Positions 1 through 62,400 of a DNA stretch of 64,000 bases are shown piece by piece (positions within the stretch are counted from its first letter, which is position 1; every line of letters begins with the position of its first letter). The notes beneath the pieces were generated by a model, which saw only the letters and a program-made list of their open reading frames with translations, was not told where the DNA came from and searched no databases. Where the stretch lies: IMG/VR virus record IMGVR_UViG_3300012931_000667, positions 1 through 64,000 of that record; one strand, 5' to 3'. Origin of the DNA: a virus. Position numbers and translations under genes: made by a program.

Positions 1-743
1 AATGATGAATCTTGTGGTCTTTTTACACCTGATATATCTTCTATCATTTTCATTTTTTCTATTTTTTTATTAGGACTAATAGAAGTAGCATACTTCCATA
101 TTGATTTTCTTTTTTGACCTATGTTATAAACTCCATAGGCATTATTAATAATAAGTATACTTATTTTCTTAGCTATAGTATTTACAGGTTCACGAGAAGA
201 ATAAGCATCAGTAAATGCTACATCTCTATGCCATTCTTTAGGACTAAAAGCACATCGAATTATTAAGTATTGATTTTCATTTAATTGTCTTACTATACCC
301 TCTCCAGCTAATTTACTCCATCCATACCTATTAACAGGAAATACATCATCATCTTCACTATAATTTCCATAATTACCTTTATAAATATATTCAGTAGAAA
401 TATATACAATTTTTTTAATATATCCTATAGCTACAAATTCTGATAGATATCCTGTACCTATAATATTAGTATTTATTGTATTACACACTATATCACTATC
501 ATCAATCATAAAGTTTTTTAATACATATTCAGGATGATGATGCTCTATTTTATTTTGATTTATTAATGCGGCACAATGAATACATACATCATAAGGTATT
601 TTACAATGAGATACTAGATACCTATTAACAGACTCTAAATTAGTAATATCTAATTCATCATGAGTAGGGCAATCAGCATCAGGAAACAATACATGTAACT
701 CTGATCCTAATTGTCCTGATGCTCCTACTATTAATATTCTCAT
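1..743 (-). CDS. dTDP-4-dehydrorhamnose reductase (RmlD/RfbD)-like SDR, runs off the window edge
   Basis: Translated by hand (not in the ORF track): MRILIVGASGQLG nucleotide-binding motif, HCAA, YISTEY, YGWSK catalytic motif and RPQDSS near the C-terminus. Its ATG overlaps the TGA of the upstream gene. Confidence 0.8.
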   Translation of the reverse strand, partial: MRILIVGASGQLGSELHVLFPDADCPTHDELDITNLESVNRYLVSHCKIPYDVCIHCAALINQNKIEHHHPEYVLKNFMIDDSDIVCNTINTNIIGTGYLSEFVAIGYIKKIVYISTEYIYKGNYGNYSEDDDVFPVNRYGWSKLAGEGIVRQLNENQYLIIRCAFSPKEWHRDVAFTDAYSSREPVNTIAKKISILIINNAYGVYNIGQKRKSIWKYATSISPNKKIEKMKMIEDISGVKRPQDSS

Positions 744-3181
744 TTTAGATTATCCTTATTCTGAATAGCACTTAATACTGTTTTAGCTTCATAGTTAATA
801 TCTTCTTCGGTTAATCCATGCCATAATCCAATCCATAGCATATTGGTCATTATTTTATTAGTCATATCTAAATCATAATAAATACAATCTTTAATTTGAT
901 TAGAACAAGGTTGTGCTAATATATTTCCAGCAAATAATAATCTAGTTCCTATACCTTTACTATCAAGTTCTTTAATTACCTTTTGTCTATCTACAGTATC
1001 AGGTAATAATAATGGGTATCCAAAATAAGAAGGATCATAAGTAGAATAATAATTAGCTTTATCATCATGGTTACTAAAGAAAAATAATGAGTATTCTTCA
1101 AGTACTTCTTGTAGTAAACTAAAATTTCTTTTTCTAATGTCAATATATGCATCAAGTTTATCTAATTGAGAGTAAAGTAAAGCCGCACTAGGATTAGTCA
1201 TTTTTAAGTTATACCCAAAATGATTGTATACAAACTTATGATCAAATCCTACAGGTAATTGTCCATCAAGCCCAGGTTCATAAGTATGATCAAATCTATA
1301 TCCACATTGGTTATCTTGACCAGGGGAACAATTACATTCTTTTCCCCAATCACGCAATGATTGTACAATTTTATTAATTAATGGATCATCAGTAGCTATA
1401 GCCCCACCTTCACCAGAATTATGAACAGACATTCCACTTCCTGTCATAAAATTTTCATATCCAGCAACACTAATATCATATACAAACCCATTTATACAAT
1501 CAATTTCTTCTATTTTAGTTATTTTTGCTTGAGTCATATCCCCATAAAGTCTTTTTAAAGTATGATTACCTCTAAAACCTTTTGAATCTAAAATACTTTT
1601 ATTAGAATAAGATATTTTATAATTTTTTTTACAATTAGATATATACTCTTTCTTTGTTCCCTTATTAAATACTTTTTTTATTTCTGATTCTTCATTCCAT
1701 AAAGGTTGAATTCCTAAAGATAAAAGTAAATAAAATATTCCTGTAGCTAATTCTTTACTAATTGTTTTTGCTTCTTTATAAATAGTATCTTTACAAATAA
1801 AATTATTCAATTTATGTATTGTACCATCCCCACAATAGTACCCATTTAAAAACTCTTTTTTTATTTCTTTAGTAGAATTAAATATAAAAGAAGGTACTTT
1901 TTTATTAATAGCACCTCTGCCACAATACTTTAATAAAAATTCATATAATGCTTTATTAGAAGCAACCATATTTATTCCATTTTCAGTTTCTTTTTTATTA
2001 AAAATAGAGAATTTAAAATCTCCAAAATCTTTTATAGCATTATTAATCTTATTTAACCAATCACTTTCTTTTTTATGTAAAGATAAAATTATATTATAAT
2101 TTCCTGATTTTTTATTTTTATTAAAACTTCCTTCTGCAACAAATAACCCTAGAAACCAAGAAAATTCTTTAGTAATATCTATATTTTTGATATAGGACTC
2201 CCAATTTCCTTTTTTATATAATTTAATATCTATATCTTTTTTTTCAGGTAATAAAGGAATATTTTTTGGTAGTAAAATATAATCCCCTTTTTTAAAATTA
2301 GAAGTTTCTTTACCTTTAATTTCATCATTTTCTAAATAATACAAATTATGAGATGAAGTTACTGTTACATTTCTTCCTGTTTGTACTGTTATTTTATATA
2401 ATTTTTCTTTACATTCATGTTTAATTACTCCTGTAATAGGTTGATAAGATAATTTACCATCACTATTAAATACAATTGCTTCACTATTTTCATATAAACT
2501 ATTATATTCTACATAATCTCCAATCTTTACAATTTTTAATTCATTTTTATTTCTAATATAGATGTATTCATCATAAGGTAAACTTGTAACATGGTGAGCA
2601 GGATAAAAAGAATAAGTGGAAACTTGACCAAAAGTTCCTACTTTTTCTCTCATATATTTTGCTCCCAATGCATCACAACAATCTTCTATTAAAAACAAAT
2701 CATATTTTTCACATACACTTAGTACTTCATTAACATTAAAAGGAATTCCTAATGTATGTGCTAAGAAGATACCCTTAACATTATCATTAATATCACATGC
2801 TCGCTTTAATTGTTCAATATTAATTCCTAACTTTGAGTCTACATCACAAAAAATAGGAATGCATCCTGATTGAATAATAGGGCTAATAGTTGTAGGAAAT
2901 CCACAAGCTACAGTAATTACTTTATCTCCCTTATTAAGTCTCCATTTTTCATGCATTAATGGAGAAGTAAAAGCCATAAAAGCAAGTAGATTAGCTGAAC
3001 TTCCACTATTACATAATGATATATATTTTAATCCTAGATAATTACTTAATTTATCCTCTGTCATTTTTACATATTTTCCTCCACATACTTCACCTGACAT
3101 AATAGCATCAATCATTGTTATTTTGTCTTTATCAGTTAATACCATTCCACTATTTTGTATATACTTTCTTTTTTGTTCCAT
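740..3181 (-). CDS. rfbH: RfbH/E1-type DegT-family PMP-dependent NDP-4-keto-6-deoxyglucose 3-dehydratase, intein-containing
   Basis: NSGSSANLLA, GFPTT, AHTLG, IEDCCDALG. SFYPAHH has His in place of the usual PLP lysine. Cys cluster CNCSPGQDNQC, DHKFVY, GYNLK, TRLLFAGN. Extein is about 424 aa. Confidence 0.85.
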   Translation of the reverse strand: MEQKRKYIQNSGMVLTDKDKITMIDAIMSGEVCGGKYVKMTEDKLSNYLGLKYISLCNSGSSANLLAFMAFTSPLMHEKWRLNKGDKVITVACGFPTTISPIIQSGCIPIFCDVDSKLGINIEQLKRACDINDNVKGIFLAHTLGIPFNVNEVLSVCEKYDLFLIEDCCDALGAKYMREKVGTFGQVSTYSFYPAHHVTSLPYDEYIYIRNKNELKIVKIGDYVEYNSLYENSEAIVFNSDGKLSYQPITGVIKHECKEKLYKITVQTGRNVTVTSSHNLYYLENDEIKGKETSNFKKGDYILLPKNIPLLPEKKDIDIKLYKKGNWESYIKNIDITKEFSWFLGLFVAEGSFNKNKKSGNYNIILSLHKKESDWLNKINNAIKDFGDFKFSIFNKKETENGINMVASNKALYEFLLKYCGRGAINKKVPSFIFNSTKEIKKEFLNGYYCGDGTIHKLNNFICKDTIYKEAKTISKELATGIFYLLLSLGIQPLWNEESEIKKVFNKGTKKEYISNCKKNYKISYSNKSILDSKGFRGNHTLKRLYGDMTQAKITKIEEIDCINGFVYDISVAGYENFMTGSGMSVHNSGEGGAIATDDPLINKIVQSLRDWGKECNCSPGQDNQCGYRFDHTYEPGLDGQLPVGFDHKFVYNHFGYNLKMTNPSAALLYSQLDKLDAYIDIRKRNFSLLQEVLEEYSLFFFSNHDDKANYYSTYDPSYFGYPLLLPDTVDRQKVIKELDSKGIGTRLLFAGNILAQPCSNQIKDCIYYDLDMTNKIMTNMLWIGLWHGLTEEDINYEAKTVLSAIQNKDNLK
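1418..2584 (-). mobile_element. Intein (389 aa) with LAGLIDADG endonuclease in the rfbH-like gene
   Basis: Starts SLPYDEYI, block B VTSSHNL, LAGLIDADG motifs FLGLFVAEGS and FLNGYYCGDG, ends VYDISV...VHN followed by Ser. Splicing restores PAHHVT-SGEGG. Confidence 0.9.
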
Positions 3182-7839: not shown

Positions 7840-10188
7840 TTACATAAGATTTTTAACTTTATTGTATAATTCTTGATATTGATCTTTATCTAAATTTTGT
7901 ATCCATTTAATAGAATTATCAGCACCTTGCCCTACTTTTTCTTCACCATAAGTATACCAAGCACCTTTCTTATCTATTACTCCTTTATCTACAGCTAAAG
8001 AAAGTAAATCAGCATATTTGTTTATACCTTTACCAAATTCAAGTAAGAACTCTCGTTTACGGAAAGGAGGAGCTAACTTATTTTTAACAATTTTTATTTT
8101 TATTTTATTAGCAGTAGCATCATCATCATCATTTTTTCCACCACCTATAGTTTCAATTTTACGCACATCTAATCTTTGTGAAGAATAAAATTTTAATGCA
8201 TTTCCGCCACTTGTAACTTCTGGTGATCCAAACATAACACCAATTTTACAGTTATGAGTTAAATATTGTTCTACTGTAAATAAACTATCATTTTCTACTT
8301 CAATATCTATAGCATCAATTACAATGTTTTCTAATTCTTTTATTTCTGTAAATCTATTACTAGATATTAAATTAATGTATTTAGTATCTTCCATATATTT
8401 TAAAAATTCAATCATAGCAATTCTATCAAAATTTAATTTTTTATATAAACACATATTAAACTTTTTATAATCATAAAAATCAGTTATATTTTTATTTAAT
8501 TTTTTCATATCTTGAACTATAAGATATCCTAGAGAATAAGGTACAACATCATATTTACCTCTAGCATTAATATTTTTAATAAAACTTTCTGATATCTTTT
8601 GCTTCGTTGGTTCAGCAAATCCTATATCTTTACTAAATTTAACAGCATCACAACCACTAATATATAAGTAGTTACCTCTTATATCAGAAAAAATTCCTAA
8701 ATAATAAAGGATATTACTTATTTGTATTAAACTATCTTTATTTTCATTTGTAAAAATAAATTGACTTCCATTATTTTTTGGAGTATAAAAATGATGAGTA
8801 TCAAAAAAACAACCCCTGATGAAAGATATAATTACTGATTTTCTTGATTCATAAATTAATTTAGGAACATCCTTAAATTTTCCATATCTTTTTAATCCTA
8901 ATGCTTTAAAAAAATCTAAATATATTTTTCCATTCAAATTAATATGCCTATACTCTTTATGAATTGAAACTTCTGGAAATAATTTTTTAGTATATTCTTG
9001 TATTAAATTAAATCTTTCTTCATTTTTTTCTGACCATATAATACCATAAGTAGATTTATTATCAAAATCTAACATTGACCCATCAGAATAGTATGTTCCC
9101 ATAATAAATGCTAAATCTTCATTTAATACTGTAGGTAATTGTTTTATTCTACATTCTTTAGGTAAATTATTAATAATATTTTTAATAATATCTTCTAAAT
9201 TAAAGTATGGAACATTATTAGAAATAGCATTTGAATTAATAATAGGTTGAATTAACCAATCTTTAACTTTAATATCTTTAGCTAATTTTACTTCATAACC
9301 ATTATTAGAAATTACTGGTTGTTTATGATTTTCACTTATTTTAAAATCAGGTCTATATTTTGATTTTATTTTAATTCCATCAATTTTTCCAGAATTGTAG
9401 ATATCTAATACTTTTTTATCATATATAAAGCTATTTTTTTTAATATCTCCAAAATATGATAACTTACCATCAATTAAACACATCATACTTTTATCTACAC
9501 ATCTTAATTGATTGATAAAAATTAATGTAGTTTTTGTTTTAGATAATTTAGCAGTTAATTTTCGTAATGCTTGACTCATTAGCCTTGCCTGGAGGCCTAT
9601 GTGGGAGTCGCCCATGTCGCCTTCGATTTCAGCTTGTGGAGTTAAAGCCGCTACAGAATCTATAACAATAATATTAACAACACCAGAGTCAATTAAATCT
9701 TCAGTAATACCTAATGCTTGTTCACCACTATCAGGTTGTGATATCCATAGTGAATCAATATCTACCCCTAAATTTTTAGCATAGATAGGGTCTAATGCAT
9801 GTTCAGCATCAACAAAGGCCGCTATTCCTCCTCTACGTTGAATAGCCGCAACAGCATGTAAAGCTACAGTAGTTTTTCCAGAACTTTCAGGACCATAGAT
9901 TTCAATAACTCTTCCTTGACCGAAACCACCACCTAAAATATCATCAAGTCCTAATATGTCTGTACTTTCCATAGGGAACTTTTGAATATTAGTCCCATCT
10001 AAACATACTAAAGAATTTTTACCATATTTTTTTTCAATACCCTCAATGGATTTAGATAGTATCTCTAATTTAGCTTTTTTATCAGCAGGGACTTCTTTTT
10101 TTTCTTCAACTTTCTCTTTAGCTTTTTTTACTTTACCCTTATTTTCTTCTTCTAAAACAATAGTACTTATCTCTACACCATCACTCAA
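7840..10188 (-). CDS. recA: RecA recombinase, intein-containing
   Basis: [65 protein letters not shown]. Extein is about 365 aa. Confidence 0.97.
8251..9501 (-). mobile_element. Intein (417 aa) with LAGLIDADG-like domain in recA
   Basis: Starts CVDKSM after FINQLR, block B ISENHKQ, motif [10 protein letters not shown], ends LTHN followed by Cys (CKIGVMFG). Confidence 0.9.
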
Positions 10189-13279: not shown

Positions 13280-14485
13280 TTATAGAAAACTACTTTCTAA
13301 AATTAGGTCTTTTTCGGTAGAGGAATGATAACTTCCTCTAGTTAGAATATTTAAAGCCGCATTATAATCTGCATCTGCTTCAAATCCACAACTTTTACAT
13401 TGGTATTTCTCTCCTTGACGGTTTGATTTATCAACTTCACCACAATTTGAACAAATTTGACTTGTATAAGCTGGATTTACTTTTATCAATTGAAAACCTT
13501 TCTCTTGACTTCGTATCTCCAGCAAGTCTAAAACTTGGTTATAAGCAAAATATTGTTGTATATTTAATTGTTTTCTACTCAATTTAGATTTATATCTAAG
13601 TAATTTTAAATCTTCACATACTATTTTCTGTACATCATCATATTCATTTAGAAATAAATTAATATTCCTATTTATTGAATCCTTCTTATACTTTAAATAC
13701 TGACTATAATTTTTACTTCCTCGTACTTTATTAGAAAGTTTATTATAAATACTTTCCATTTCTTTACCATAATAGTCTTCATTTGAAGAGGATATCAATT
13801 TTTTATATCCTAAGTCAATACCTATAATTGGACCAACAGATTTTTTTATAGTATCCTCTTTTTCAAACATAAAAATAAATTCAAATTGTCCATTACAATT
13901 CTTTTTTAAAAATACTGTTTTTCTTCTATTCCAATCTTTGTATTTATTATATTGCTTATGATATTTAATGGGTAGATTTATTTGTATAGCTCGATGTTTA
14001 TTCTCATAAAAATAAGGTAATTTTAATCCTACAAATTCATTAAATTCTTTAGAATCAGTACTAAAATTAAATTGACGTTCATCTATAGGAATAGTAATAT
14101 TTTTTAATTGTATTTTAATTCTTTTCATATAGTTTATATTTAGTTCACTAAATTTTTTATTAGTAAATTGACTATGAATTCCTTTTTTAATAAAAATAGC
14201 ATACAATTTTTGATATTTCTTAAATGTTCTGTTTTTAGTATATTTTAAATTACTTCTTATTATTTCAGAAGCTTGTTTATATAATATTGATTTATAGTGA
14301 GAATGACTCAATCTAATTGTAGGTAATTCTTTACAGGATAATAATTTTTTAAAAGGTAAATTACCATTAAGAATTAATTTAATATATTCAGTTAAATCAC
14401 TATTATAATCAGTATATAGTTTTTCAAGTAAAGCTAACTTTTGAGTATTACTAAATTTAAGTGTTACTTTACTTGACCTTACCAT
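13280..14485 (-). CDS. tnpB: TnpB RNA-guided endonuclease
   Basis: RuvC-I IGIDLG, RuvC-II VCEDL, VNPAYTSQICSNC...CKSC zinc finger, RuvC-III DADYNAALNI. Confidence 0.93.
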   Translation of the reverse strand: MVRSSKVTLKFSNTQKLALLEKLYTDYNSDLTEYIKLILNGNLPFKKLLSCKELPTIRLSHSHYKSILYKQASEIIRSNLKYTKNRTFKKYQKLYAIFIKKGIHSQFTNKKFSELNINYMKRIKIQLKNITIPIDERQFNFSTDSKEFNEFVGLKLPYFYENKHRAIQINLPIKYHKQYNKYKDWNRRKTVFLKKNCNGQFEFIFMFEKEDTIKKSVGPIIGIDLGYKKLISSSNEDYYGKEMESIYNKLSNKVRGSKNYSQYLKYKKDSINRNINLFLNEYDDVQKIVCEDLKLLRYKSKLSRKQLNIQQYFAYNQVLDLLEIRSQEKGFQLIKVNPAYTSQICSNCGEVDKSNRQGEKYQCKSCGFEADADYNAALNILTRGSYHSSTEKDLILESSFL

Positions 14486-14504: not shown

Positions 14505-14514
14505 TATATAGTTA
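14505..14514 (-). promoter_or_regulatory. TAACTATWTA putative phage promoter upstream of tnpB
   Basis: TAACTATATA about 20 nt before the tnpB ATG; the same motif recurs upstream of many genes. Confidence 0.5.
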
Positions 14515-14667
14515 AAAACTTTTATATTAACCCTTTTTTCTATACTTTACTATTTTTTACTATAAAATCAATAAACTATCTGTATCCTCTAATATCTACC
14601 ATCATTTAATTATTATTATCATAATATAAAATATTTTAGTATTTCACTCTTGATTTTAGTGTCCATA

Positions 14668-15399: not shown

Positions 15400-15427
15400 A
15401 TTATACATAAATTACTAATTTTGTCAA
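15400..15427 (-). promoter_or_regulatory. Sigma70-type promoter immediately after the GIY-YIG gene
   Basis: TTGACA-N16-TATAAT. Confidence 0.7.
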
Positions 15428-15430
15428 TAG

Positions 15431-16213
15431 TTATCCTTCATAATACATCCAATGAAATCCACCAGCTTTATTTATTTCTCCTCTACAACAAGCTCCAATA
15501 CTTGTTCTATTAACTTTTGTTATTTTTGAAGCTTCATGTATAGATTCATAAACAATATTAGTTTCAATATATAAAACTTTTTTTGAGTTCACATTCAAGT
15601 TCCCTCTTTTACCATACATATGATTTTTTTCACCTAATTGTGCTATAGACATTTTATCTTTATGTTCTTTAGTAAATTTTTTACCTTTTCTTAATATACT
15701 CATTTTTGTTTTTGTTTCTTCTGAAGCTTTTTTTCCTAATTTTGTTTTTCTCATTTTTTCTTTAGATTTTTCAGTATGACTTCTTCCTAACCATATTTTA
15801 TTTCCTTTTTTAATTCTTCTTAAATTGTCTTTAACTTTTTCTGATCTTGGTTTCCCTAATTTTGATAAACTTATTTTTAATTTTGCTTCTTCAGTTAAAC
15901 CTCCATTAGTACCTCCTTCTTTCATATTGTACCCATATTCTTTATTTAGTGTCTTATAGAAACTAATGTAGAAACATTCCAAAATATTTAGAATTAATTG
16001 ATCTTTTCTATTTATGTTTGATAATATCTCAAATTTAAAATTATCTTTTCCATAAGTAATCCAAGATTTTTGTAGATGTTTATTATAATGCTTATTATTA
16101 TTTAATAATTTTTTATGATCTTTCCATCTATTATCAATATTTATGCTTTGACCTATATACTTTTTATTATTAATTAAATTAGTAATACAGTAAATCCCAA
16201 TAATTTTTTCCAT
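15431..16213 (-). CDS. Free-standing GIY-YIG homing endonuclease with NUMOD3 repeats and C-terminal HTH
   Basis: GIYCITNLINNKKYIGQS, GYN, repeated H(S/T)EETKxK(M/I)S-type units, C-terminal ESIHEASK...CCRG...AGGFHW. Confidence 0.9.
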   Translation of the reverse strand: MEKIIGIYCITNLINNKKYIGQSINIDNRWKDHKKLLNNNKHYNKHLQKSWITYGKDNFKFEILSNINRKDQLILNILECFYISFYKTLNKEYGYNMKEGGTNGGLTEEAKLKISLSKLGKPRSEKVKDNLRRIKKGNKIWLGRSHTEKSKEKMRKTKLGKKASEETKTKMSILRKGKKFTKEHKDKMSIAQLGEKNHMYGKRGNLNVNSKKVLYIETNIVYESIHEASKITKVNRTSIGACCRGEINKAGGFHWMYYEG

Positions 16214-16324
16214 TATTTTTCCCTTTTAAGTGGTTCCCGCCACTAATACAAATAGTTAAAAAATTAAAAGAGTTAGCTTAAAATTATTAATTTCGAGCAA
16301 CAGGCGGGAACCTGCTGTCCTCTT
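16214..16324 (-). ncRNA. Structured endonuclease-leader RNA, copy 1 (three-way junction plus kissing hairpin)
   Basis: P1 AAGAG/CTCTT, GAC, P2 AGCAGG-TTCCCG-CCTGTT, P3 GCT..AGC, TAA, T-tract, TAACTATTTG, P4 AGTGG-CGGGAA-CCACT, AAAGGG RBS. Homologous to copies 2 and 3. Confidence 0.8.
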
Positions 16325-16329
16325 CTAAT

Positions 16330-18942
16330 TTATAAAGTTTTATCAATATTATTAAAGGAAATTCCCTCCATTCCTAAAAATCCTGCTACTAATCTTTTAG
16401 TTACTAGTTGTCTTTTATGAATAAAAGAACTTAAAATTAAATCCCCTAGTTCATTTTCTTGTATTGCTAATAATCTTTTCATTTTTGTTTGTCTTTTACA
16501 AATTACATTAAAATTTTTATTTTCATACATGTCAATACCATAAATTAGTAATAAATAATCTTTTCCTCTTACTTTAAGAGAAGGCTGTATCATATATCCA
16601 TTTTGAGCATATTGCCTTTGTACTAATGGTTTAAATACAAAACCTTCACCACCATTTTCAGTATACTCTATCCATGAACTAATACAATTATTTATTGATT
16701 TAGGATCATTAAGATTTACATGAATAGACTCTACACATTTAAACTTATCATTTTCAATTGATCGAATGTATCCTAATTTTTCAATGTTGTCAAGTTCTTT
16801 CCCTAATATCCAATCATACTTATTACCAACTTTATCCCCTAATGCTAATATATTAAATACTCTGCAATATGGTTCTTCTTCTGCAATATAATTCTGTAAT
16901 GACTGCATATATTTATCTACATTAATTAATCCATTAACATCTTTTTTAATTGTTCTATCTATAGTAGCACATTCTCCTATACCTTGGAACTTATTTCTAA
17001 TTAACCATTTTCCTTTTAATGACCATGGCATCATTTCAGTATCAAGTATAGTAACGTCATATTCTAATTGATCTACTATTGAATCATAGAATTCTTGATC
17101 CATACTATCATCATCAAAAAATTTATTACCATTACGAGTATTAATATAAATCAATTTATCCATATTAAAATCTTTAGCTATATCTAATGATTTAAATAGT
17201 AATATATGTGCTCGACTACCCATGTACTTCTTTTCTGCTACAAGTTCAGTTATTCCCCTTGATCTATAATAATCAAAAACTGTAGTAGGGTATTCTAGAT
17301 AATCATTATGATCCTTACTAAAGTCTACAGGAGGAACAGTAGGAGCAATATAAAATATATTAGCACTATTAGTAAGGAATGCTCGATTAGAGTATCCATT
17401 AGAAATCTCTTTACCCTCTATGATATAATCACTAACAGGTAAATATATTTGAGAATGAAAACTAGATGTTTTATAACTAAAAGGTAACTTTCTATTAGGA
17501 TCAGAATTAGCAATTACAGCTAATATAGATGGAGTATCATAATAAGGTACTCCACATCCAGGCATATTTGCTCCATCAAGAATCCAACTATGAATAATAC
17601 TTTCTTTTTTATCTTCTGCTAGTTCAATTCCAGCATAACTAATTTCATATTTATTTTTTTCAAAATAACTACTAACTTCACTTTTGAATTGATCCCATGT
17701 AAACTCTATTTTATGCCCTTTATCCCTATAACCATTATTTCCTTGAATCTTTCCACTATCAAATAATTTTGAATTGTAATCATAATTAGGAGTAGTTAAT
17801 ATTATTACTTTAGGATTAATTACATTTATAATAAAATCCATTAATTGTTTTCTTTCATGGTCATCAAAATGCTCTATGATTTCAGATAACAATACAATAT
17901 CTATAGATTGTGGTAGTATTGATACATTAGGATATAGTAAATTCATTTGATAAAAATGAATATGCTTAAATTTATCTAATCCTCTTCCTGCTTTTTCTGA
18001 TGCATCATAAGCATAGATATCAAAAGGAATATTTTCATCTTTTAATTTATCATTTATCATTACTGATAATCTACCATTAGCACAACCATAATCAATAATA
18101 TTTAAATGTTCTGTTACTACTTGTTTTTCTTTTTGCATTAAACTGTAGTACATTACTACCTGATCACTAATCCATTTATGTCGTAATTGATGTAATGTAG
18201 TAAAATCAATATATAGTTGTTCCTTTACTACCTCTTGATCATCATCAATATCAATTACTGATTCTATAAATTTTTTCTCTAATGACTTATTACTTCTGCA
18301 TAATGTACGAATAATATTTTTAGTATAACTATTATCACTTTCTAACCATTGACACATTTTGATATACTTATCTATTTGTTCATCAGAAATAGGAAACATA
18401 TTATAATTAAAAGTAGAGTATAAACAAATCATAAATACTTTCTGTAATGCTACCTGTAATGTACTTTTAATGGTTAGATGTAATCCATAAGCTACATCAA
18501 AATTATCATATGTTTTAAATACATTAAAACCTAATGAACTAAAGACATTATGAATATCTCCAAAATCACATAAAAATGGTCCTATATCAAAACATATATA
18601 CCTTTCTCTAATGGATTCATCTTTAAGAACTGTACCCTTATTCATAAAATTAATAATTTCATCTTTATAATTATTAGTAAAAGCAGAACGTAAACACTCA
18701 TAGATTGAATTTAAAAAATATGGAGTAACCCCATATAACTGATATGAATTATATACTTCTTCATTTCTTTCTTTTAGTGTAGGAAGTAATTCAGTGAAAC
18801 TTAAATTAGAAGTAATACTATACACATTTCCTAAGTATTCTCCTCTTATTTTATTTTTATCATAAATTGATCCTGGCTTTTTGCATAAAAGGTATGAGAA
18901 TATTGAATCATTTTCCTCACCAGAATAAATATTAAAAAACAT
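16330..18942 (-). CDS. Fusion of Hen1 RNA 2'-O-methyltransferase and Pnkp-type RNA ligase domain
   Basis: Hen1 N-domain FSYLLCKKP. MTase motifs IIDYGCANG, EIIEH, TTPNYDYN, RDKGHKIEFTWDQF. Ligase motifs YIAPTVPP, EKKYMGSRA, GEGFVFKP, LKVRGKDYLLLIYG. Confidence 0.85.
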   Translation of the reverse strand: MFFNIYSGEENDSIFSYLLCKKPGSIYDKNKIRGEYLGNVYSITSNLSFTELLPTLKERNEEVYNSYQLYGVTPYFLNSIYECLRSAFTNNYKDEIINFMNKGTVLKDESIRERYICFDIGPFLCDFGDIHNVFSSLGFNVFKTYDNFDVAYGLHLTIKSTLQVALQKVFMICLYSTFNYNMFPISDEQIDKYIKMCQWLESDNSYTKNIIRTLCRSNKSLEKKFIESVIDIDDDQEVVKEQLYIDFTTLHQLRHKWISDQVVMYYSLMQKEKQVVTEHLNIIDYGCANGRLSVMINDKLKDENIPFDIYAYDASEKAGRGLDKFKHIHFYQMNLLYPNVSILPQSIDIVLLSEIIEHFDDHERKQLMDFIINVINPKVIILTTPNYDYNSKLFDSGKIQGNNGYRDKGHKIEFTWDQFKSEVSSYFEKNKYEISYAGIELAEDKKESIIHSWILDGANMPGCGVPYYDTPSILAVIANSDPNRKLPFSYKTSSFHSQIYLPVSDYIIEGKEISNGYSNRAFLTNSANIFYIAPTVPPVDFSKDHNDYLEYPTTVFDYYRSRGITELVAEKKYMGSRAHILLFKSLDIAKDFNMDKLIYINTRNGNKFFDDDSMDQEFYDSIVDQLEYDVTILDTEMMPWSLKGKWLIRNKFQGIGECATIDRTIKKDVNGLINVDKYMQSLQNYIAEEEPYCRVFNILALGDKVGNKYDWILGKELDNIEKLGYIRSIENDKFKCVESIHVNLNDPKSINNCISSWIEYTENGGEGFVFKPLVQRQYAQNGYMIQPSLKVRGKDYLLLIYGIDMYENKNFNVICKRQTKMKRLLAIQENELGDLILSSFIHKRQLVTKRLVAGFLGMEGISFNNIDKTL

Positions 18943-31168: not shown

Positions 31169-34100
31169 TTAATCTATAGCTTTAAATTGTCTACGAGGGA
31201 ACTCCCAATTTCTACGAGTAATATTCCATCCACTTATCTTTGTATAAAAGCCAACAACACGAGTTAAATAATCAGTAATTTCTTTTCCACAAATGGGACA
31301 TATCTTTTGTTTACCAAAAGAACTATGACCATCTACACATTCACTATATACAGAATTCAAAGCAAAAAGTTCACATCCAGATTTAATAGCATAATCTATT
31401 ATTTTTTTATTTTGAGTAGTAGTAGTTTTTTCTCCTAAATTAAAGAAACAAATAGAACCACCTGTATATAATTTTTGATATTTACCATCTATTTCCATTC
31501 TTTCCCATATTGATTTATCTTCCCATAAAGGAATAAATTGATTAGAATATAATTCATAAGGTACACAACTTTCACCATAAATTAATTTATCAATTTGTGT
31601 TAATCTTATCGCCATAGTTTCACCAGGAACTTGTTCTATATTAAATGGTGTTTTTAATTCATTAGTCCAATAAGAAGCTTTATCATTAAGAAGTTTTAAT
31701 GATTCCTCAATTAAATCTTTATTAAAATCACCAAATTTTTTAAGCATTGTTTCTTTTGTTTCAGTTAATCCAATAATACCATAAGTAGAAAACATTTTTT
31801 TTAATTGAATCCAACCTAAAGTCATTAATGGTTGCATTCCTTTATCAATAGTATCTTGTAACATCTTTCTATGAGAATAAAGTATTTTAGTAGCATCATC
31901 TATTCTTTCTGATAATATTTTAAAAAATGAATCATAATCAGTAGCTTCAAGAGCTATACGATTAAAATTAATTAATACTACTCTATGAGAACCTAAACTA
32001 ATAGCACTCCCACCAAAAGAATTTGATAGTCCTCCTAAATTAAACATATCAGCATCACTTAATAATCGACAATTATGTGTTATTACTCCATTAGGTAAAG
32101 TAAAATAAGGTTCTTCTTTATTTCTCATTTCAAAACAATATACACTTTCTTTATTATATTCTTTTATTTCTTCAATAGAGTTTATTTTAAAATAAATATT
32201 TCCATTTCTAAAAATATATACATTTTCTTGTTTTCTTTTTGATTTTCTATCATACCACCTAATAGAATAAGATGGATAATTTCTATTATAGAAATTATCT
32301 CTAATAAATACTTTTTCATTTGTTCTATCTACACAATCAATACAAGAAACTTTACCTAATGAAGTTAATAAAGTTTCCATATTAGAAATTAATTTTTTAG
32401 AAGAAGAATAAATTCTATTAGAGTTTCCACCATCTGTTAAATATAATCCTTTTAGGATACCCTTTCTAAAGTCTTTAGATTCTAGTAGACATTCAAGATT
32501 TAATTCTTTTTCATAAGAATAATTACCATATACCCAATATTTTATAAAATTATATAAATTAATATCATGAATACAAACATTATAACAATTATTTTTTAAT
32601 TCATTTTTATAAATATTTTTATTAATCCCCAATTGTTTAAGAGCAATTTCAAATATAGGAATTAACTCTTTATCTTTTTTAAGATTTAAAGAAAAACAAA
32701 TAATAGTTCCATTATTATCCTTATTTTTATAAGAACTTCCATCTCCTAAATAAGAACCTATTAAAATTCCTTGTTCATAAGTTAAAATACTTTTTTTATT
32801 ATATCTACCAGGAGTAGACTCATTTAATAGATTATTATTAAATAGTAAGTAATCATCCTCTGTTAATTCACATACTTTTTTATCTTTTTCTAATGTTAGA
32901 AAAATATGGTCTTCAGTTACAATCATTTCTTTTTTATTAGATGTGATAATTTTATACATTTTCTTATTTTCTCTATTAACTTTTATAGGATTTCCAAATA
33001 ACCAATTTCCATTATGAAAAATTCTTAAATTTATTCCATTTTTAGGCATTTCATATACTTCTTTTAATTTTTTTTCTTCTACTCCATTAGTACTATAAAT
33101 TAATACTTTTGTATCTTCATCAAAACAGCAAGAACTTATTTTATTACCTTCAGAAACATAAGTATGATATCTATAAACATCATGTTTACAATACTCTTTT
33201 TCAAAATCTTTATCTACTACATCAATTACACCATTAATATTTTTACGAGAAAGGTTAACTGTTGATACAGGAAAAGTATAAGGCTTTCCATTAGATAGAG
33301 GATCACCTTTATCAAAAAAATCCATATATAATTTTTCAAGATAAATAATATATTCAATAATGTAATTAATGTCTATTTTTTCAAAATACCAACCCATATT
33401 ATCTTTAGCTAATAAATTTTTAAGTTTTTCTCTATCAAATAAAGAGATATTGGTAAAAGGACTTTCAATATTATTTCTTGACATAGGATTATTAACACTA
33501 TGTACAAAAGTTTGATAGCAATTAATAATATATTTTTGTAATTCTTTAGATTCTTGTAATTGTTCTAAAGTAACTTTTTCTCGATAATAAAGAACATGGC
33601 AAATATCAAAAAAGAAAGTACCTATAGCGATAGCCCCTGCTAATTGAGAAGACATTTGATGAATAATTTCTTTTAAAGAATCAATATAACTAGAAACTCT
33701 ATGAGGAGGATTAGATTTTAATTGCCCAAAAGGAACCCCTTGAATAACAATTTTTGATGCATCAAAAGCCCAACAATAAGGTAATAATAGTTTACCACTA
33801 TCATGAATAGCTAAAGACATATCATACATTTCACCAGTTAATTTTTTAGCTTCTTTTTTACCATATAAATCTTTAATTTTTCTATATAAAGCTCTATACC
33901 CTACCATTTTATATAAAGGAATTGATGATTCATATTGTAATCCAGCTAATGTTTTTCCACTTTTATTAGCATTAGTATCTAAAGAAGTATCTGCTAAATT
34001 ACTATTTGTTAATAACTCAATATTATTTATAAAGTCAAAATTATCTTTACTTAACCCATGCATTTTTAATATTTTTTCTGTAATATCATCATTCACAATT

Positions 34101-34180
34101 CCATACTTTTTATATAAAGAATAATTTAAAGTATTCTTTACTCTTTTAACTGAAGCATTAATACCAGAGTCTTCAAACAT
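31169..34180 (-). CDS. nrdD: Anaerobic (class III) ribonucleotide reductase, intein-containing
   Basis: IHD, PYC, SPFTNISLFD, YTFPV, SSC|CRL, EQVPGE, YSNQF, GGSI, C-terminal Zn motif and glycyl-radical loop TRVVGF. Likely start is MFEDS at 34180 with an RBS. Confidence 0.92.
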   Translation of the reverse strand: MFEDSGINASVKRVKNTLNYSLYKKYGIVNDDITEKILKMHGLSKDNFDFINNIELLTNSNLADTSLDTNANKSGKTLAGLQYESSIPLYKMVGYRALYRKIKDLYGKKEAKKLTGEMYDMSLAIHDSGKLLLPYCWAFDASKIVIQGVPFGQLKSNPPHRVSSYIDSLKEIIHQMSSQLAGAIAIGTFFFDICHVLYYREKVTLEQLQESKELQKYIINCYQTFVHSVNNPMSRNNIESPFTNISLFDREKLKNLLAKDNMGWYFEKIDINYIIEYIIYLEKLYMDFFDKGDPLSNGKPYTFPVSTVNLSRKNINGVIDVVDKDFEKEYCKHDVYRYHTYVSEGNKISSCCFDEDTKVLIYSTNGVEEKKLKEVYEMPKNGINLRIFHNGNWLFGNPIKVNRENKKMYKIITSNKKEMIVTEDHIFLTLEKDKKVCELTEDDYLLFNNNLLNESTPGRYNKKSILTYEQGILIGSYLGDGSSYKNKDNNGTIICFSLNLKKDKELIPIFEIALKQLGINKNIYKNELKNNCYNVCIHDINLYNFIKYWVYGNYSYEKELNLECLLESKDFRKGILKGLYLTDGGNSNRIYSSSKKLISNMETLLTSLGKVSCIDCVDRTNEKVFIRDNFYNRNYPSYSIRWYDRKSKRKQENVYIFRNGNIYFKINSIEEIKEYNKESVYCFEMRNKEEPYFTLPNGVITHNCRLLSDADMFNLGGLSNSFGGSAISLGSHRVVLINFNRIALEATDYDSFFKILSERIDDATKILYSHRKMLQDTIDKGMQPLMTLGWIQLKKMFSTYGIIGLTETKETMLKKFGDFNKDLIEESLKLLNDKASYWTNELKTPFNIEQVPGETMAIRLTQIDKLIYGESCVPYELYSNQFIPLWEDKSIWERMEIDGKYQKLYTGGSICFFNLGEKTTTTQNKKIIDYAIKSGCELFALNSVYSECVDGHSSFGKQKICPICGKEITDYLTRVVGFYTKISGWNITRRNWEFPRRQFKAID
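32072..33127 (-). mobile_element. Intein (352 aa) with LAGLIDADG endonuclease in nrdD
   Basis: Starts CFDEDTKV, block B VTEDHIF, motifs LIGSYLGDGS and ILKGLYLTDGG, ends ITHN followed by Cys. Confidence 0.92.
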
Positions 34181-34181
34181 A

Positions 34182-34745
34182 CTATTCGTTTTCTCCCTTG
34201 AATGTATAATAGTTATCAATCGATATTTGATTAAAATTAGAATCATATAACTTTTGATTTTTAGATGCAAAAATTAATTGATTATTTACTTTACCCATAC
34301 TATTATCTTTTAATTCCTCTATATATTTTCCACATTTATAAAATTGTGCTCCATATATTCCCATATCCATAACTTCATTAATTAAATATCCAGTATAAAT
34401 ACATATATCAAACTTTTTATTACTAAAATTAATGTTTAATAAACTTTTTATAAAATTTCTATTATCAATAAATAAAGGATCACCACCTTCAAATACTATT
34501 TTATTTGTATGTTGTTTGTTACATTCCCTTTCTAAAGCAAACCAAAAATCATAATAATCATAATCTTGATCATTTAAATCAATAATTATATCTTTACTTT
34601 GTTCACAACTATAATTATAATTTTGAAATTCTTTATTATGACAATTTTTACAATTATGCTCACATCCTAATGTATAAACTACAACAGCATTGTCTTGTGA
34701 AGGATAATCTTGCCAAGAAACAGAAAAGGGATAAACTACTTTCAT
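34182..34745 (-). CDS. nrdG: Anaerobic RNR activating enzyme (radical SAM)
   Basis: GCEHNCKNCHN (CxxxCxxC), GGDPL, IYTGY, SKNQ; adjacent to nrdD. Start reassigned to MKVVYPF. Confidence 0.88.
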   Translation of the reverse strand: MKVVYPFSVSWQDYPSQDNAVVVYTLGCEHNCKNCHNKEFQNYNYSCEQSKDIIIDLNDQDYDYYDFWFALERECNKQHTNKIVFEGGDPLFIDNRNFIKSLLNINFSNKKFDICIYTGYLINEVMDMGIYGAQFYKCGKYIEELKDNSMGKVNNQLIFASKNQKLYDSNFNQISIDNYYTFKGENE

Positions 34746-40928: not shown

Positions 40929-40991
40929 ACTTTCTCCTTTTTTTGTGCTATGCACTACTTTATTTTTTGCTCTATGAGCATTAATACATAG

Positions 40992-41557
40992 TTAAAATAT
41001 AAAATTAATTACATTCTTATAATCATTAGATTGATAAATAATTTGACCTTCATTATTGTAAACCAAAAAGTAATACCCTTTAGACATATCATATTGATAG
41101 TAATCAGATAAACAAGCATTTTCTTCTAAAGAAACATCAATAATATAAACCATTATACTATGTTTCTTACAATCAGTTAAAAACTCATTAAAACTTTTAC
41201 TAATTTCTTGTCCAACACTCCAAATAACTAATGTATAATCATTTTTAAATGTTGTAGGATCAAAAGTTTCTGATGTTAAATACTTCATGGTAATTCTTCT
41301 TTATCCCCTTCTTTATTAATATCTTCAATTTCATTCTGACCTTTAAGCATATCACCAAGAATAATAGATAAATAGTCTATAACAGAATAACTTAGTTCTT
41401 TAACAGGAATTTCATTATGAAAAGATTTATAATCCTTTCTAAAAAATCCCATTTTTAATATAGACTCTCCATCATCACTTGATTTTAATTCCAATATAAT
41501 TCTCTGCATACTAGGATGTTCTAGAATTACAGAAAATTGTTGTAATCCTTCATTCAA
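40992..41557 (-). CDS. Two hypothetical proteins (40992-41288, 41285-41557)
   Basis: Overlapping ORFs. Confidence 0.5.
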
Positions 41558-48556: not shown

Positions 48557-48559
48557 ATT

Positions 48560-48672
48560 AAGAGGACAGTAGGTTGACGCCTATTGCTAAAATTATTCCA
48601 GTTTTAGCTAACTCTTTTATTTTTTTTAACTATATAAAATAAAGTTGCGTCAACAACTTAAAAGGAAAAATT
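48560..48672 (+). ncRNA. Structured endonuclease-leader RNA, copy 2
   Basis: P1 AAGAG/CTCTT, GAC, P2 AGTAGG-TTGACG-CCTATT, P3 GCTAAAATT/AGTTTTAGC, TAA, T-tract, TAACTATATA, P4 AAGTTG-CGTCAA-CAACTT, AAAGG RBS. Confidence 0.8.
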
Positions 48673-49524
48673 ATGGAAGAAAAAGTATTGTTACTTGAAG
48701 ATCGTAGATTTTATGTTTATATTTATCTAGACCCTAGAAAACCTGGAAATTACAACTATGGTGAATACCATTTTGATTTTGAACCTTTTTATGTTGGTAA
48801 AGGAAGTGGATATAGAGCTTGGAGTCATTTGCAATCTTATATGTTAAAAGAAACTGGAAATTTAAGAATTAATAAATTTAGAAAAATTATTAATAATGGA
48901 TATAAAATAGAACCTATAATAATTAAAACTAATATTTTAGAAAAAGAATCTTTTTATTATGAAAAATTATTAATTAAATTGATAGGAAGATATGATAAAA
49001 ATAAAGGACCATTAGTTAATCAAACAGATGGTGGAGAGGGTACTTGTGGAACTATTTTTTCTAAAGAAGCTATAGAAAAAATGAGACAAGCTAATTTAGG
49101 TAGAAGATATTCCAATGAAATTAATAAGAAAAAAGGAAGAAAAGGAAGATTAGTTTCAGAGGAAACTAAAGAAAAACATAAACAATATAAAGTTTCTGAA
49201 GAAGTAAAGAGAAAACAATCTAAAAATAAAGAAGGAAATAAAAATCCTAGATTTGGAAAACCAGCAATGAATAGAGTTAAAGTTATTTATGTAAATGAGA
49301 ATAAAGAATTTAATTCTTTATTAGAAGCTGGAGAGTACACTAATAGGTGTTCAAGTGATATTCACAAATGTTGTTCTGGAAAAGTAAAATCAATAGGAAG
49401 AAATAGTGGAAATAAATTTTATTTTATGTATGTATCAACTTATATTAGTTTATCTAATGAAGAAAAAAAACAATTATTATCTAATTTTGATTTAACACAA
49501 CAATTTATCTTAAACCATATATAA
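48673..49524 (+). CDS. Free-standing GIY-YIG-superfamily endonuclease (YVY...FYVGKG type) with NUMOD3/HTH
   Basis: FYVYIYLDPRK...PFYVGKG..R, E...LI, LVNQTDGGEG, SEETKEK units, C-terminal HTH. Confidence 0.8.
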   Translation: MEEKVLLLEDRRFYVYIYLDPRKPGNYNYGEYHFDFEPFYVGKGSGYRAWSHLQSYMLKETGNLRINKFRKIINNGYKIEPIIIKTNILEKESFYYEKLLIKLIGRYDKNKGPLVNQTDGGEGTCGTIFSKEAIEKMRQANLGRRYSNEINKKKGRKGRLVSEETKEKHKQYKVSEEVKRKQSKNKEGNKNPRFGKPAMNRVKVIYVNENKEFNSLLEAGEYTNRCSSDIHKCCSGKVKSIGRNSGNKFYFMYVSTYISLSNEEKKQLLSNFDLTQQFILNHI

Positions 49525-55342: not shown

Positions 55343-55345
55343 TTT

Positions 55346-55465
55346 ATAGGGACAGCAAGGCGCTAACCTTGTTGCTAAGGTAATTCCAGCTTTAGCTAAC
55401 CTATTTTTTAATATTTTTAACTATTTAAAAATAGAAGTCTTTAGCGAGACTTAAAAGGAAAAATT
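55346..55465 (+). ncRNA. Structured endonuclease-leader RNA, copy 3
   Basis: P1 ATAGG/CCTAT, GAC, P2 AGCAAGG-CGCTAA-CCTTGTT, P3 GCTAAGG/CTTTAGC, TAA, T-tract, TAACTATTTA, P4 AAGTCT-TTAGCG-AGACTT, AAAGG RBS. Confidence 0.8.
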
Positions 55466-56416
55466 ATGGAAAATAGATTTCAAGAGGCATTTAGTAAATT
55501 ACCATCAGTTGATTTAGAGCATCAAATTCATTTGAATAGGTATATTAAATTTATTAGTAGCAGACTAGAAAGAAAATTTGAATATAAAAAAGGTTTGTGT
55601 AAACATCATGTACATCCTGTTTCTTTTGGAGCAAATAAAGGTTTTAAAGAAAAATGGAACATAATTGTACTAACAGAAAGAGAACATTTTATTGCTCATT
55701 TAATTCTATATAAATGCTATGGTGGAAAAATGACAAGAGCCTTTTTTATGATGAATAATGGAAAGAATATTTTAAGTGGTAATTATAGTAATTTAAATTC
55801 TAAACAATATGAAAAATTAAGAAAAGAGTATACAGAAAAAATAAGTGGAAAAGGTAATCCTATGTATGGTAAAGAAATGAAGGAAATAAATAAAAAATTA
55901 AGAAAAATTCTTTGGACAGGTAAAAATAATCCTATGTATAATTCAAAAAGATATAAAAATAAAAATCCTTTCTATGGTGAACATCATACTGAAGAAACTA
56001 AGATTAAATTAAAAAAAATAGATAAAACAAAAATAATGAAAAAAGTTATATTATTAAATACTAAAAAAATATTTAATAGTATAACAGAAGCTAGTAAGAT
56101 AACTAATATAAGTGCTAGTTCCATAATAGGTTGTTGTTCACATAATCCAAAAATTACTTGTACTCATTATGGATATGAAAATTATTATTGGTTATATATA
56201 GAAGAGTATGACCCTAATTTTGATTATAGCTATTTATTAGATTCTAAAAAAATTATTTGTATAGAAAAAAATGAAATATTTAATAGTGTAAAAGAATGTT
56301 CATTAAAAATGAATATTTCTGAAACATATTTATCATTATGTTGTAATAATAAAGTAGATTCTGCAAAAGGATATCATTTTATGAAGTATAATGCATATAA
56401 AGGAAAAAATGATTAA
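55466..56416 (+). CDS. Free-standing HNH homing endonuclease (Mob-like) with NUMOD and two HTH repeats
   Basis: KHHVHPVSFG...NIIVLTEREHFIAH, NPMYG/NPFYG, HTEETK, two FNS..E(A/C)S...CC repeats. Confidence 0.85.
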   Translation: MENRFQEAFSKLPSVDLEHQIHLNRYIKFISSRLERKFEYKKGLCKHHVHPVSFGANKGFKEKWNIIVLTEREHFIAHLILYKCYGGKMTRAFFMMNNGKNILSGNYSNLNSKQYEKLRKEYTEKISGKGNPMYGKEMKEINKKLRKILWTGKNNPMYNSKRYKNKNPFYGEHHTEETKIKLKKIDKTKIMKKVILLNTKKIFNSITEASKITNISASSIIGCCSHNPKITCTHYGYENYYWLYIEEYDPNFDYSYLLDSKKIICIEKNEIFNSVKECSLKMNISETYLSLCCNNKVDSAKGYHFMKYNAYKGKND

Positions 56417-61464: not shown

Positions 61465-62400
61465 ATGATTATAGGTATTTATAAAATAAGTAACAAAGTT
61501 AATGGAAAGGTTTATATTGGACAATCTTGGAATATTGAAAAAAGATTTAAAGAACATAGAAAAAGAGAACTTAATAATCATTTAAAAAATGCTTTTAATA
61601 AATATGAAATTGAAAATTTTTCTTTTGAAATAATAATGACCTTTAAAAATGGTCCCTTTACTCAAAAATATTTAGATAAATTTGAAGATTATTACATTAA
61701 ATTTTATGATTCAATGAATAGTAAAAAAGGATATAATAAACGTGAAGGAGGAAGTAATGGAAAGATGTCTAAAGAGTCAAAAATTAAAATAGGTAATGCT
61801 AGTAGAGGTGAAAAAAATGCTAATTATGGAAAAAAATTTTCTAAAGAAACCTTATTTAAAATGAGAATAGCTAAATTAGGAATTAAACAATCTGAAGAAC
61901 TTAAAATAAAAAGAGGAATATATAAAAAAGGAAAAGATAATCCTCACTATGGCATTATTCGTTCTGATGAAACAAAATATAAAATAAAAATTAGTAGAAA
62001 TAAAATGGCTGTTGTCTGTATAGAGACTAAAGAAAAATTTGATTCTGTAACAGAAGCTAGTAAAAAATATAAAATAGATAAAAAATCAATATTAAATGTT
62101 TGTAGAAATATTATCAATTATAATACTGCTGGTGGCTTTCATTGGATGTTTTTAAGTGATTATGATGAAAATAAAATTTATAATTTTAGAAAAAACAAAA
62201 CAAATGAAATTAAGGTAATAAATATAGATACTATGGAAATTTTTGATTCAATTACAAAAGCCGCTAAAAAATATAATTTATCTATTTCTAATATTCATTC
62301 TTGTTGTAATAAAAAACAAAAAACTGCTGGTGGTTATCAATGGATGTACTATATTGAATATTTAAAATTAGGACTTGACAAGAAAAGTATAATATGTTAG
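61465..62400 (+). CDS. Free-standing GIY-YIG homing endonuclease with NUMOD3 and two HTH repeats
   Basis: GIYKISNKVNGKVYIGQS, GYN, two FDS.T.A.K...AGG.(H/Q)W repeats. Confidence 0.9.
   Translation: MIIGIYKISNKVNGKVYIGQSWNIEKRFKEHRKRELNNHLKNAFNKYEIENFSFEIIMTFKNGPFTQKYLDKFEDYYIKFYDSMNSKKGYNKREGGSNGKMSKESKIKIGNASRGEKNANYGKKFSKETLFKMRIAKLGIKQSEELKIKRGIYKKGKDNPHYGIIRSDETKYKIKISRNKMAVVCIETKEKFDSVTEASKKYKIDKKSILNVCRNIINYNTAGGFHWMFLSDYDENKIYNFRKNKTNEIKVINIDTMEIFDSITKAAKKYNLSISNIHSCCNKKQKTAGGYQWMYYIEYLKLGLDKKSIIC

Follow-up and report, generated by a model that had tools for sequence, protein, structure and literature searches.

A conserved three-way-junction leader RNA with copy-specific complementary loops ahead of mobile nuclease genes in phages

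A homing endonuclease has to be made in amounts that let it spread without harming the phage that carries it, and the control of these enzymes has so far been described gene by gene, in T-even phages. Leader structures that mask the ribosome-binding site (RBS), and that are bypassed by an internal late promoter, control I-TevI, I-TevII, I-TevIII, segB and the mobE gene of phage Aeh1 (PMC2988022). In seg43(25) of Aeromonas phage 25, a stable hairpin stands directly before the Shine-Dalgarno (SD) sequence of a free-standing endonuclease gene, and the SD itself is unpaired (PMC2988022). Here we analyzed a structured leader RNA (copy 1) on the minus strand of the IMG/VR viral contig IMGVR_UViG_3300012931_000667, located in front of a gene for a GIY-YIG homing endonuclease. 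The window, that is, the whole stretch of DNA analyzed, is the initial 64 kb of this 77.9-kb contig (CheckV 39% complete; 25% GC), and the stretch is present in DNA runs of wetland metagenomes.

Our analysis revealed that copy 1 belongs to an RNA family that is widespread, uncatalogued and tied to selfish nuclease genes. The 111-nt leader (16324-16214) contains a three-way junction in the order P1, GAC, P2, P3, UAA and P1′, followed by a U tract, the motif TAACTAT, a fourth hairpin (P4), the SD and the ATG. An initial annotation of this DNA had placed the start of the element 5 nucleotides (nt) after the stop codon of a Hen1-ligase gene. This was borne out: the upstream minus-strand open reading frame (ORF), of 870 amino acids (aa), ends at 16330, its TAA stop is followed by the 5-nt spacer ATTAG, and its methyltransferase and PNKP ligase domains are compatible with the proposed name. 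The downstream gene had been called a classical GIY-YIG endonuclease, and the domain matches of ORF 15431-16213 agree with this (GIY-YIG, E 4e-9; NUMOD3, E 7e-13). The gap between the two ORFs is 116 nt, and the nuclease ORF starts 53 nt past P1′. The parts of the locus are as follows.

16330-16332, minus strand: stop codon TAA of the upstream methyltransferase/PNKP-type ligase ORF, as read from the sequence.
16320-16324, minus strand: 5′ strand of P1, AAGAG; its last G belongs to the G-C closing pair, which is G-C in 34/34 family copies.
16317-16319, minus strand: junction strand J1/2, GAC, the same in every aligned copy.
16299-16316, minus strand: P2 hairpin, AGCAGG (16316-16311) and CCTGTT (16304-16299) around the loop L2, TTCCCG (16310-16305); pair 1 is A-U and pair 2 the conserved G.U wobble.
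16276-16298, minus strand: P3 hairpin with a GCT...AGC base and an AU-only loop, L3 (sequence and covariation).
16273-16275, minus strand: junction strand J3/1, TAA (sequence).
16268-16272, minus strand: 3′ strand of P1, CTCTT, continuing into the U tract (sequence and covariation).
16252-16267, minus strand: U tract and TAACTAT (16258-16252), a promoter candidate; the motif also stands before unrelated genes of the contig.
16229-16244, minus strand: P4 hairpin, AGTGG (16244-16240) and CCACT (16233-16229) around the 6-nt loop L4, CGGGAA (16239-16234), the exact complement of L2.
16211-16227, minus strand: translation initiation region, with the SD AAAAGGG (16227-16221) and the ATG (16213-16211); it begins 1-2 nt past P4 and is unpaired in the nested fold.
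15431-16213, minus strand: free-standing homing endonuclease gene, 260 aa, GIY-YIG and NUMOD3 (domain search).

Family copies were sought in IMG/VR with scan patterns (GGACAG...TTGCT...AGCTAAC plus a GAT/ATC variant) and then with a junction-only covariance model. The copies scored were pattern-seeded loci; MAFFT alignments misplace the stems of variable loops, and the counts were taken on model-guided alignments. Patterns and model together gave 34 distinct junction copies in unrelated phage contigs. In these copies 96.5% of the cells of the junction helices were paired versus 63.7% in shuffles, 15 of the 18 junction pairs changed on both sides, and the covariation score was 0.816 versus 0.186 after shuffling, with slid-partner controls at or below 0.144. 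The G-C pair closing P1, GAC and UAA (UUA in a few copies) are fixed in the family. The first pair of P2 is A-U and the second is G.U in 31/34, A.C in copy 4 of the contig and U.U in two, while the base of P3 is fixed as G-C, then C-G or A-U, then U-A. These junction nucleotides stay fixed while the stems turn over, in contigs of 25-50% GC. The scan patterns account for part of this conservation; it is likewise present in copies that the model alone recovered from whole phage records.

A covariance model that includes the other copies, the check proposed in the initial annotation, recovered copy 1 at 71 bits (E 1e-16 to 1e-17) for the junction and at 134.8 bits for the full leader. The view of copy 1 as one copy of a repeated structured leader RNA is thus supported, since the model recovers, besides copy 1, three more copies from the contig itself as well as dozens from unrelated phages, and all four helices covary. 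The other copies in the contig, each identified with the covariance model, are listed below.

48559-48675, plus strand: copy 2, L2 TTGACG and L4 CGTCAA, before the LEM-3-like GIY-YIG gene 48673-49524.
55345-55468, plus strand: copy 3, L2 CGCTAA and L4 TTAGCG, before the NUMOD1/NUMOD3 nuclease gene 55466-56416.
75478-75594 of the contig (L057:11478-11594), outside the window: copy 4, L2 CTACTAA and L4 TTAGTAG.

The GAC and TAA strands, T-tract, TAACTAT and RBS of copy 1 had been described as arranged as in copies 2 and 3, and an identical layout was read there. The pattern AGCTAAC-N10-40-TAACTAT occurs 3 times versus 0.05 expected. The junction model with filters off found no further junction in the contig beyond the four copies, the next match scoring 12 bits (E 0.8).

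The genes that accompany the family encode GIY-YIG, LEM-3-like GIY-YIG, HNH, DUF7487 and zinc-ribbon proteins and, once, TnpB. The TnpB case is on a Bacteroidales contig from a metagenome-assembled genome (MAG; L232), where a junction leader heads the gene. Copy 1 has the covarying junction, adjoins the start of a mobile nuclease gene and offers a pairing partner for L2. A scan of prokaryote genomes (185,579 species) gave at least three true members among the 80 scored pattern matches listed, all on MAG contigs; with so few members there, the element appears to be mainly phage-borne. Rfam 15 gave no match at the gathering score in the window, none at E<=5 on three leaders and none on the element in the loci of 11 relatives. 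The junction model found no copy in phages T4, Acinetobacter KARL-1, Bacillus G, KoopaTroopa, SPO1, Twort and KVP40, and blastn of the relatives' loci against named phages gave matches confined to nuclease coding regions. No published description of the motif was found in full-text literature searches, which retrieved only the T-even hairpin paradigm (PMC2988022); in PMC10690425, homing endonucleases appear in the reference list only. The occurrence of one conserved RNA architecture across unrelated nuclease families, in unrelated and mostly uncultured phages, suggests that the mobile unit includes the regulatory leader itself.

The second line of evidence comes from the loops. The initial annotation had noted that the P2 loop TTCCCG is the exact complement of the P4 loop CGGGAA, and reading the sequence confirmed it; the match exceeds chance. 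A full-leader covariance model recovers nine copies of this kissing type: the four of the contig, three from IMG/VR (L006a, L006b and L036) and two on MAG contigs (L225 and L254). L2 and L4 are complementary over the whole loop in 9/9, with 8 distinct codes of 6-7 nt; the four codes outside the contig set are TTAGTGG/CCACTAA, TTACCG/CGGTAA, CTGGTA/TACCAG and TTTCCAC/GTGGAAA. In these copies 100% of the P4 cells are paired, and all 5 pairs of P4 changed on both sides. By calculation, a copy's own loop duplex has an energy of -5.4 to -7.8 kcal/mol, the latter value being that of the copy-specific TTCCCG/CGGGAA duplex of copy 1, whereas foreign pairs among six codes do no better than -3.2 kcal/mol, or -2.6 kcal/mol within the contig. 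Thus, the L2/L4 pairing is orthogonal between copies.

Watson-Crick complementary hairpin loops with covariation between them are what a kissing-loop complex would be expected to display, and the loop-loop contact proposed for copy 1 gains support from an L2/L4 complement that varies between copies yet stays perfect. The pairing could also be a long-range duplex: the Watson-Crick run around L2 and L4 reaches 10 nt in copy 1, and the minimum free energy (MFE) fold favors that duplex. However, the complementarity is restricted to loop nucleotides in copy 3, L036, copy 4 and L006a, which favors kissing hairpins over a long-range duplex and makes loop-loop pairing the common denominator. An origin of P4 by inverted DNA duplication of P2 was rejected, as only the loop bases are complementary in several copies. 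Copy 4 and a copy on an unrelated 8.8-kb contig (L006:5432-5552) have the kissing code CTACTAA/TTAGTAG and an identical P4 in common and differ in P1, P3 and nuclease gene, a hint that leader modules and nuclease ORFs recombine with each other.

Fully complementary kissing hairpins are known from the ColE1 RNA I/RNA II loops and the HIV TAR-TAR* model complex, and CopA/CopT is an example of antisense loop-loop control. The leader would resemble these systems in that whole loops of 6-7 nt are Watson-Crick complementary, with the predicted contact just upstream of the SD. In contrast to those pairs, which are formed in trans by RNAs of opposite strands, both loops here are on one messenger RNA (mRNA), separated by 55-80 nt, and a three-way junction holds one of the two. 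The copy-specific codes are a naturally occurring collection of orthogonal RNA-RNA contacts, with four in a single genome and eight overall. They make the loop-loop hypothesis directly testable by swaps and compensatory mutants, and the principle may prove useful in designing insulated translational control.

The loops of the relatives have other targets. In every class of family copy L2 has a partner, which can be the P4 loop, L2 itself where it is palindromic, or the SD of the neighboring nuclease gene, in cis or divergent. Among cis copies, the longest loop match to a copy's own downstream region averages 5.74 nt, versus 4.57 nt for the regions of other copies (0/2000 permutations). Many cis copies have an L3 complementary to SD or start codon; the match spans 9 nt in L018, 8 nt in L140, L112 and L049 and 7 nt in L048, L032 and L024, and in L232 it covers 7 nt next to the SD. 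In the kissing-type relatives L006a, L006b, L225 and L254 the match to SD or AUG is 8, 8, 6 and 9 nt. In the window copies L3 matches poorly, over 5 nt or, in copy 1, by an AU-only match. L2 is a palindrome of 4-8 nt in the 11 tabulated copies in which L3 would mask the SD (TGGCCA, TAGCTA, TGATCA, TTGCAA, TGCGCA, GGCC or AGCT), and the L2 of L232 is likewise palindromic (TAGCTA); the copies with a palindromic L2 are L018, L004, L140, L048, L049, L032, L024, L112, L124, L114, L031:4622-4677 and L232. The L031 contig carries two copies with different L2 palindromes, and the palindromes resemble dimerization loops.

In a divergent class of 15 copies on T4-like contigs, the nuclease gene is on the opposite strand, with its ATG 22-34 nt from the 5′ end of P1. 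Back-to-back relatives of this kind are L064, L066, L068 and L069 on one 204-kb contig, L063 and L067, and L047, L027, L007, L023, L022, L080 and L120. Here L2 repeats 6-12 nt located just upstream, which is to say the complement of the divergent nuclease SD, in 13/15 (mean 7.27 versus 4.72 nt; 0/5000 permutations), suggesting a trans, antisense-like action for these relatives. In the T4-like relatives TATAAATA stands 4-6 nt before P1 on the junction strand and its reverse complement just past P1′; in one T4-like genome it precedes 25/192 ORFs in the sense orientation versus 11 in the reverse orientation. Its presence on both flanks would mean either that both strands are transcribed across the element or that P1 is extended. 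At L007:2440-2594 (minus strand) and the identical loci L033, L051 and L056, a tRNA-like T arm (GGTTCGATTCC) replaces the nuclease SD downstream of the junction.

Type I toxin-antitoxin and antisense loci, for example par of pAD1 and hok/sok, are the nearest comparison for these divergent relatives, in which a short DNA repeat likewise gives a structured RNA a loop complementary to the SD of a neighboring gene whose product is a potentially harmful protein. In contrast to those loci, no toxin-type peptide is present, and the likeness is limited to the relatives; the window copies are cis leaders. The theme common to the family, as far as loop complementarity can tell, is a scaffold with loops that appear to be addressed to the translation initiation region.

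We consider that the leader acts as a cassette-borne, cis-acting translational throttle on the nuclease by means of its tertiary structure, an account to which we give slightly better than an even chance. The leader would fold as a compact junction, P1-GAC-P2-P3-UAA-P1′, and L2 would pair with the P4 loop in a 6-bp kissing helix, with P4 ending 1-2 nt before the SD. This kissing would draw the initiation region onto the junction, perhaps helped by weak L3 contacts. On read-through transcripts the tertiary fold would hinder 30S binding and keep the GIY-YIG nuclease low. Transcripts possibly starting at TAACTAT, 7 nt ahead of P4, would not include the junction and would escape, and such a promoter bypass would be a temporal gate like that of I-TevI, segB and mobE. 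In this scheme we infer repression, its relief and the transcript ends from the observed fold, the covariation, the copy-specific complementarity and the association with mobile nuclease genes. Pairing of P1′ and the U tract with the SD was considered as a general switch and rejected, as it is not conserved outside the contig.

The transcription signals bear on the last part of this scheme. TAACTAT lies between junction and P4 in all four leaders, 7-11 nt before P4 (7 nt in copy 1). Among 7-mers upstream of the contig genes, RBS-type ones aside, WACTAT is the most strongly enriched (8/43 regions versus 1.28 expected), and the T-tract with TAACTAT also precedes unrelated genes of the contig; on this evidence TAACTAT is a candidate promoter only. 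In three leader regions no internal sigma-70-type promoter was found, and an intrinsic terminator or attenuator was rejected, as no terminator-like site was present there. With neither promoter nor terminator of these types, read-through from the upstream gene is expected. A TnpB-like ORF of the window (13280-14485, minus strand; Cas12f1-like TNB domain, E 8e-21) has a T-tract and TAACTAT at 14508-14517 without the three-way junction. At 40930-41000 of the window (minus strand), a T-tract and TAACTAT are followed by two ATA-loop hairpins (TGCTC-ATA-GAGCA and GTGC-ATA-GCAC) before an SD; this region may be another structured leader.

By analogy with the T-even endonuclease leaders (PMC2988022), this would be an RNA structure in a phage homing endonuclease leader that acts on the initiation region, and, as there, the gene would lie within a read-through transcription unit, with a promoter-like motif between a presumably inhibitory upstream part and the SD. 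The T-even leaders are simple, gene-specific local hairpins that pair the SD, whereas the junction described here is conserved and common to unrelated nuclease families and phages. Furthermore, the SD of copy 1 lies outside any local hairpin, as P4 ends before it (16227-16221), and the predicted contact is a loop-loop helix to an adaptor hairpin. Compared with seg43(25), the leader has in addition a junction and a kissing partner, neither of which is described there. The role itself, limiting nuclease translation, is thus likely of a known kind, and what is new is the conserved junction, the private kissing codes and the versatility in cis and trans.

Several observations weigh against a throttle. 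The SD of copy 1 is unpaired in both the MFE and the centroid nested folds, and with P4 upstream of an unpaired SD, occlusion would need to be steric. The L3 match of copy 1 to the initiation region is AU-only and non-specific, 8-9 nt to codons 3-5. The folding energy of the whole leader only modestly beats that of shuffles (z = -1.6), and independent TAACTAT sites are few, 4/7 of the TTTAACTAT sites being the leaders themselves. Simple RBS masking also leaves the near-invariant GAC, UAA and G.U unexplained, a hint of an additional partner or tertiary role; the invariant junction could hide a ligand, protein or catalytic function.

We hold a broader proposal as well, only tentatively and with more doubt than confidence. 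The junction would be a regulatory RNA scaffold, portable and programmable, carried along with selfish nuclease genes (GIY-YIG, HNH, DUF7487, TnpB); the invariant core would have a universal partner that it recruits or senses, or else a catalytic or tertiary activity, and the two loops would be freely re-addressed to an adaptor hairpin (here by a private kissing code), to themselves, to an SD in cis or to a divergent SD in trans. If true, the scaffold would constitute an unrecognized class of RNA "antidote" for homing endonucleases, in cis and in trans.

A more specific role for the core, that of a regulated switch, seems unlikely. The invariant junction would then bind a small molecule, a widely conserved protein or the ribosome, which would decide whether the loops capture P4 and the initiation region, and the leader would be a sensor instead of a constitutive throttle. 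Junction nucleotides that are fixed while every stem turns over, also in model-found copies, and a second P2 pair that is G.U in 31/34 with an isosteric A.C substitute in copy 4 of the contig speak for such binding. The position of TATAAATA in the T4-like relatives points the same way: the junction may be on every late transcript, in which case there would be no promoter bypass there. However, only 6 junction nucleotides are unpaired and part of their conservation stems from the scan patterns; Rfam yields no match to a riboswitch or protein-binding leader even at E<=5, and the gene context points to no candidate ligand or protein.

We regard it as rather improbable that the leader is an element of RNA processing or stability, either a self-cleaving motif or a target of, or shield against, a host RNase, which would uncouple the nuclease message from the upstream mRNA or guard the 5′ end of that message, with the kissing contact stabilizing the fold. 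The loop complementarity to SD and start regions would be left unexplained, and the core has no similarity to hammerhead, twister, twister-sister, pistol, hatchet, hepatitis delta virus (HDV) or other Rfam ribozymes. On the other hand, the three-way-junction core is small and highly conserved, insulation benefits mobile cassettes, and the element begins 5 nt past the upstream stop in copy 1 and similarly near it in copies 2 and 3. In the T4-like relatives, the late-promoter-like TATAAATA would place P1 at the 5′ end of the transcript.

The unpaired SD of copy 1 and the long U tract ahead of P4 would also suit a translational activator or standby platform, in which junction and kissing contact keep the U tract and SD single-stranded for the ribosome (S1) and raise nuclease synthesis. 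P1′ and the U tract (CUCUUUU) could pair with AAAAGGG, and formation of P1 would then free the SD. We think this quite improbable: the alternative P1′/SD pairing is not conserved outside the contig, and direct pairing of a loop with SD or AUG, the signature of masking, is predicted for most relatives.

Finally, that the complementary loops act between molecules or on DNA, as an antisense regulator, a dimerization signal or a recombination or recognition site of the cassette, is very improbable for the contig copies. In its favor, 13/15 divergent relatives have an L2 complementary to 6 nt or more of the opposite-strand gene SD, a target to which pairing works only in trans, and L2 is a palindrome of 4-8 nt where L3 would mask the SD, as in dimerization loops. 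Against it, each contig L2 has its own L4 on the same RNA, 70-80 nt off, with no match to other copies, and G.U pairs and strand-specific conservation indicate RNA and not duplex DNA.

The throttle that we favor would be carried by a free-standing nuclease cassette, the far end of which is marked by one more feature.

15400-15427, minus strand: perfect sigma-70-type promoter, TTGACA-16-TATAAT (12/12), facing the next ORF (promoter scan).

This promoter (15427-15400) lies directly 3′ of the endonuclease stop, with a separate ORF beyond it, and marks the 3′ end of the cassette, which seems to supply the promoter of the next gene. A next-gene promoter supplied by the cassette has been described for some T4 seg and mob genes. 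A promoter directly past the nuclease stop and facing the next ORF indicates that the nuclease gene is free-standing and not intron-borne. A group I intron carrying the endonuclease ORF was ruled out, as the window has no Intron_gpI match, the upstream ORF ends in a stop codon, and the 12/12 sigma-70 promoter and a separate ORF follow downstream. A scan for relatives of the upstream methyltransferase-ligase, intended for an empty-site comparison, found none. In a different, 179-kb phage contig, a junction copy (L059; G002:62630-65688) has group I intron matches (Rfam RF00028, 56.6 and 50 bits) no more than 1.5 kb away.

Selfish elements are unusually abundant in this contig. A fifth free-standing GIY-YIG/NUMOD3 gene (window 61465-62400, plus strand) begins 3 nt past a DnaB-like ORF and is without leader, so the element is not on every nuclease gene of this phage. 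LAGLIDADG_3 matches occur in the ORFs for a DegT-type aminotransferase, RecA and an anaerobic ribonucleotide reductase (window 740-3181, 7840-10188 and 31169-34270, all minus strand), and intein splicing domains are also found in the DegT and NrdD ORFs of the window.

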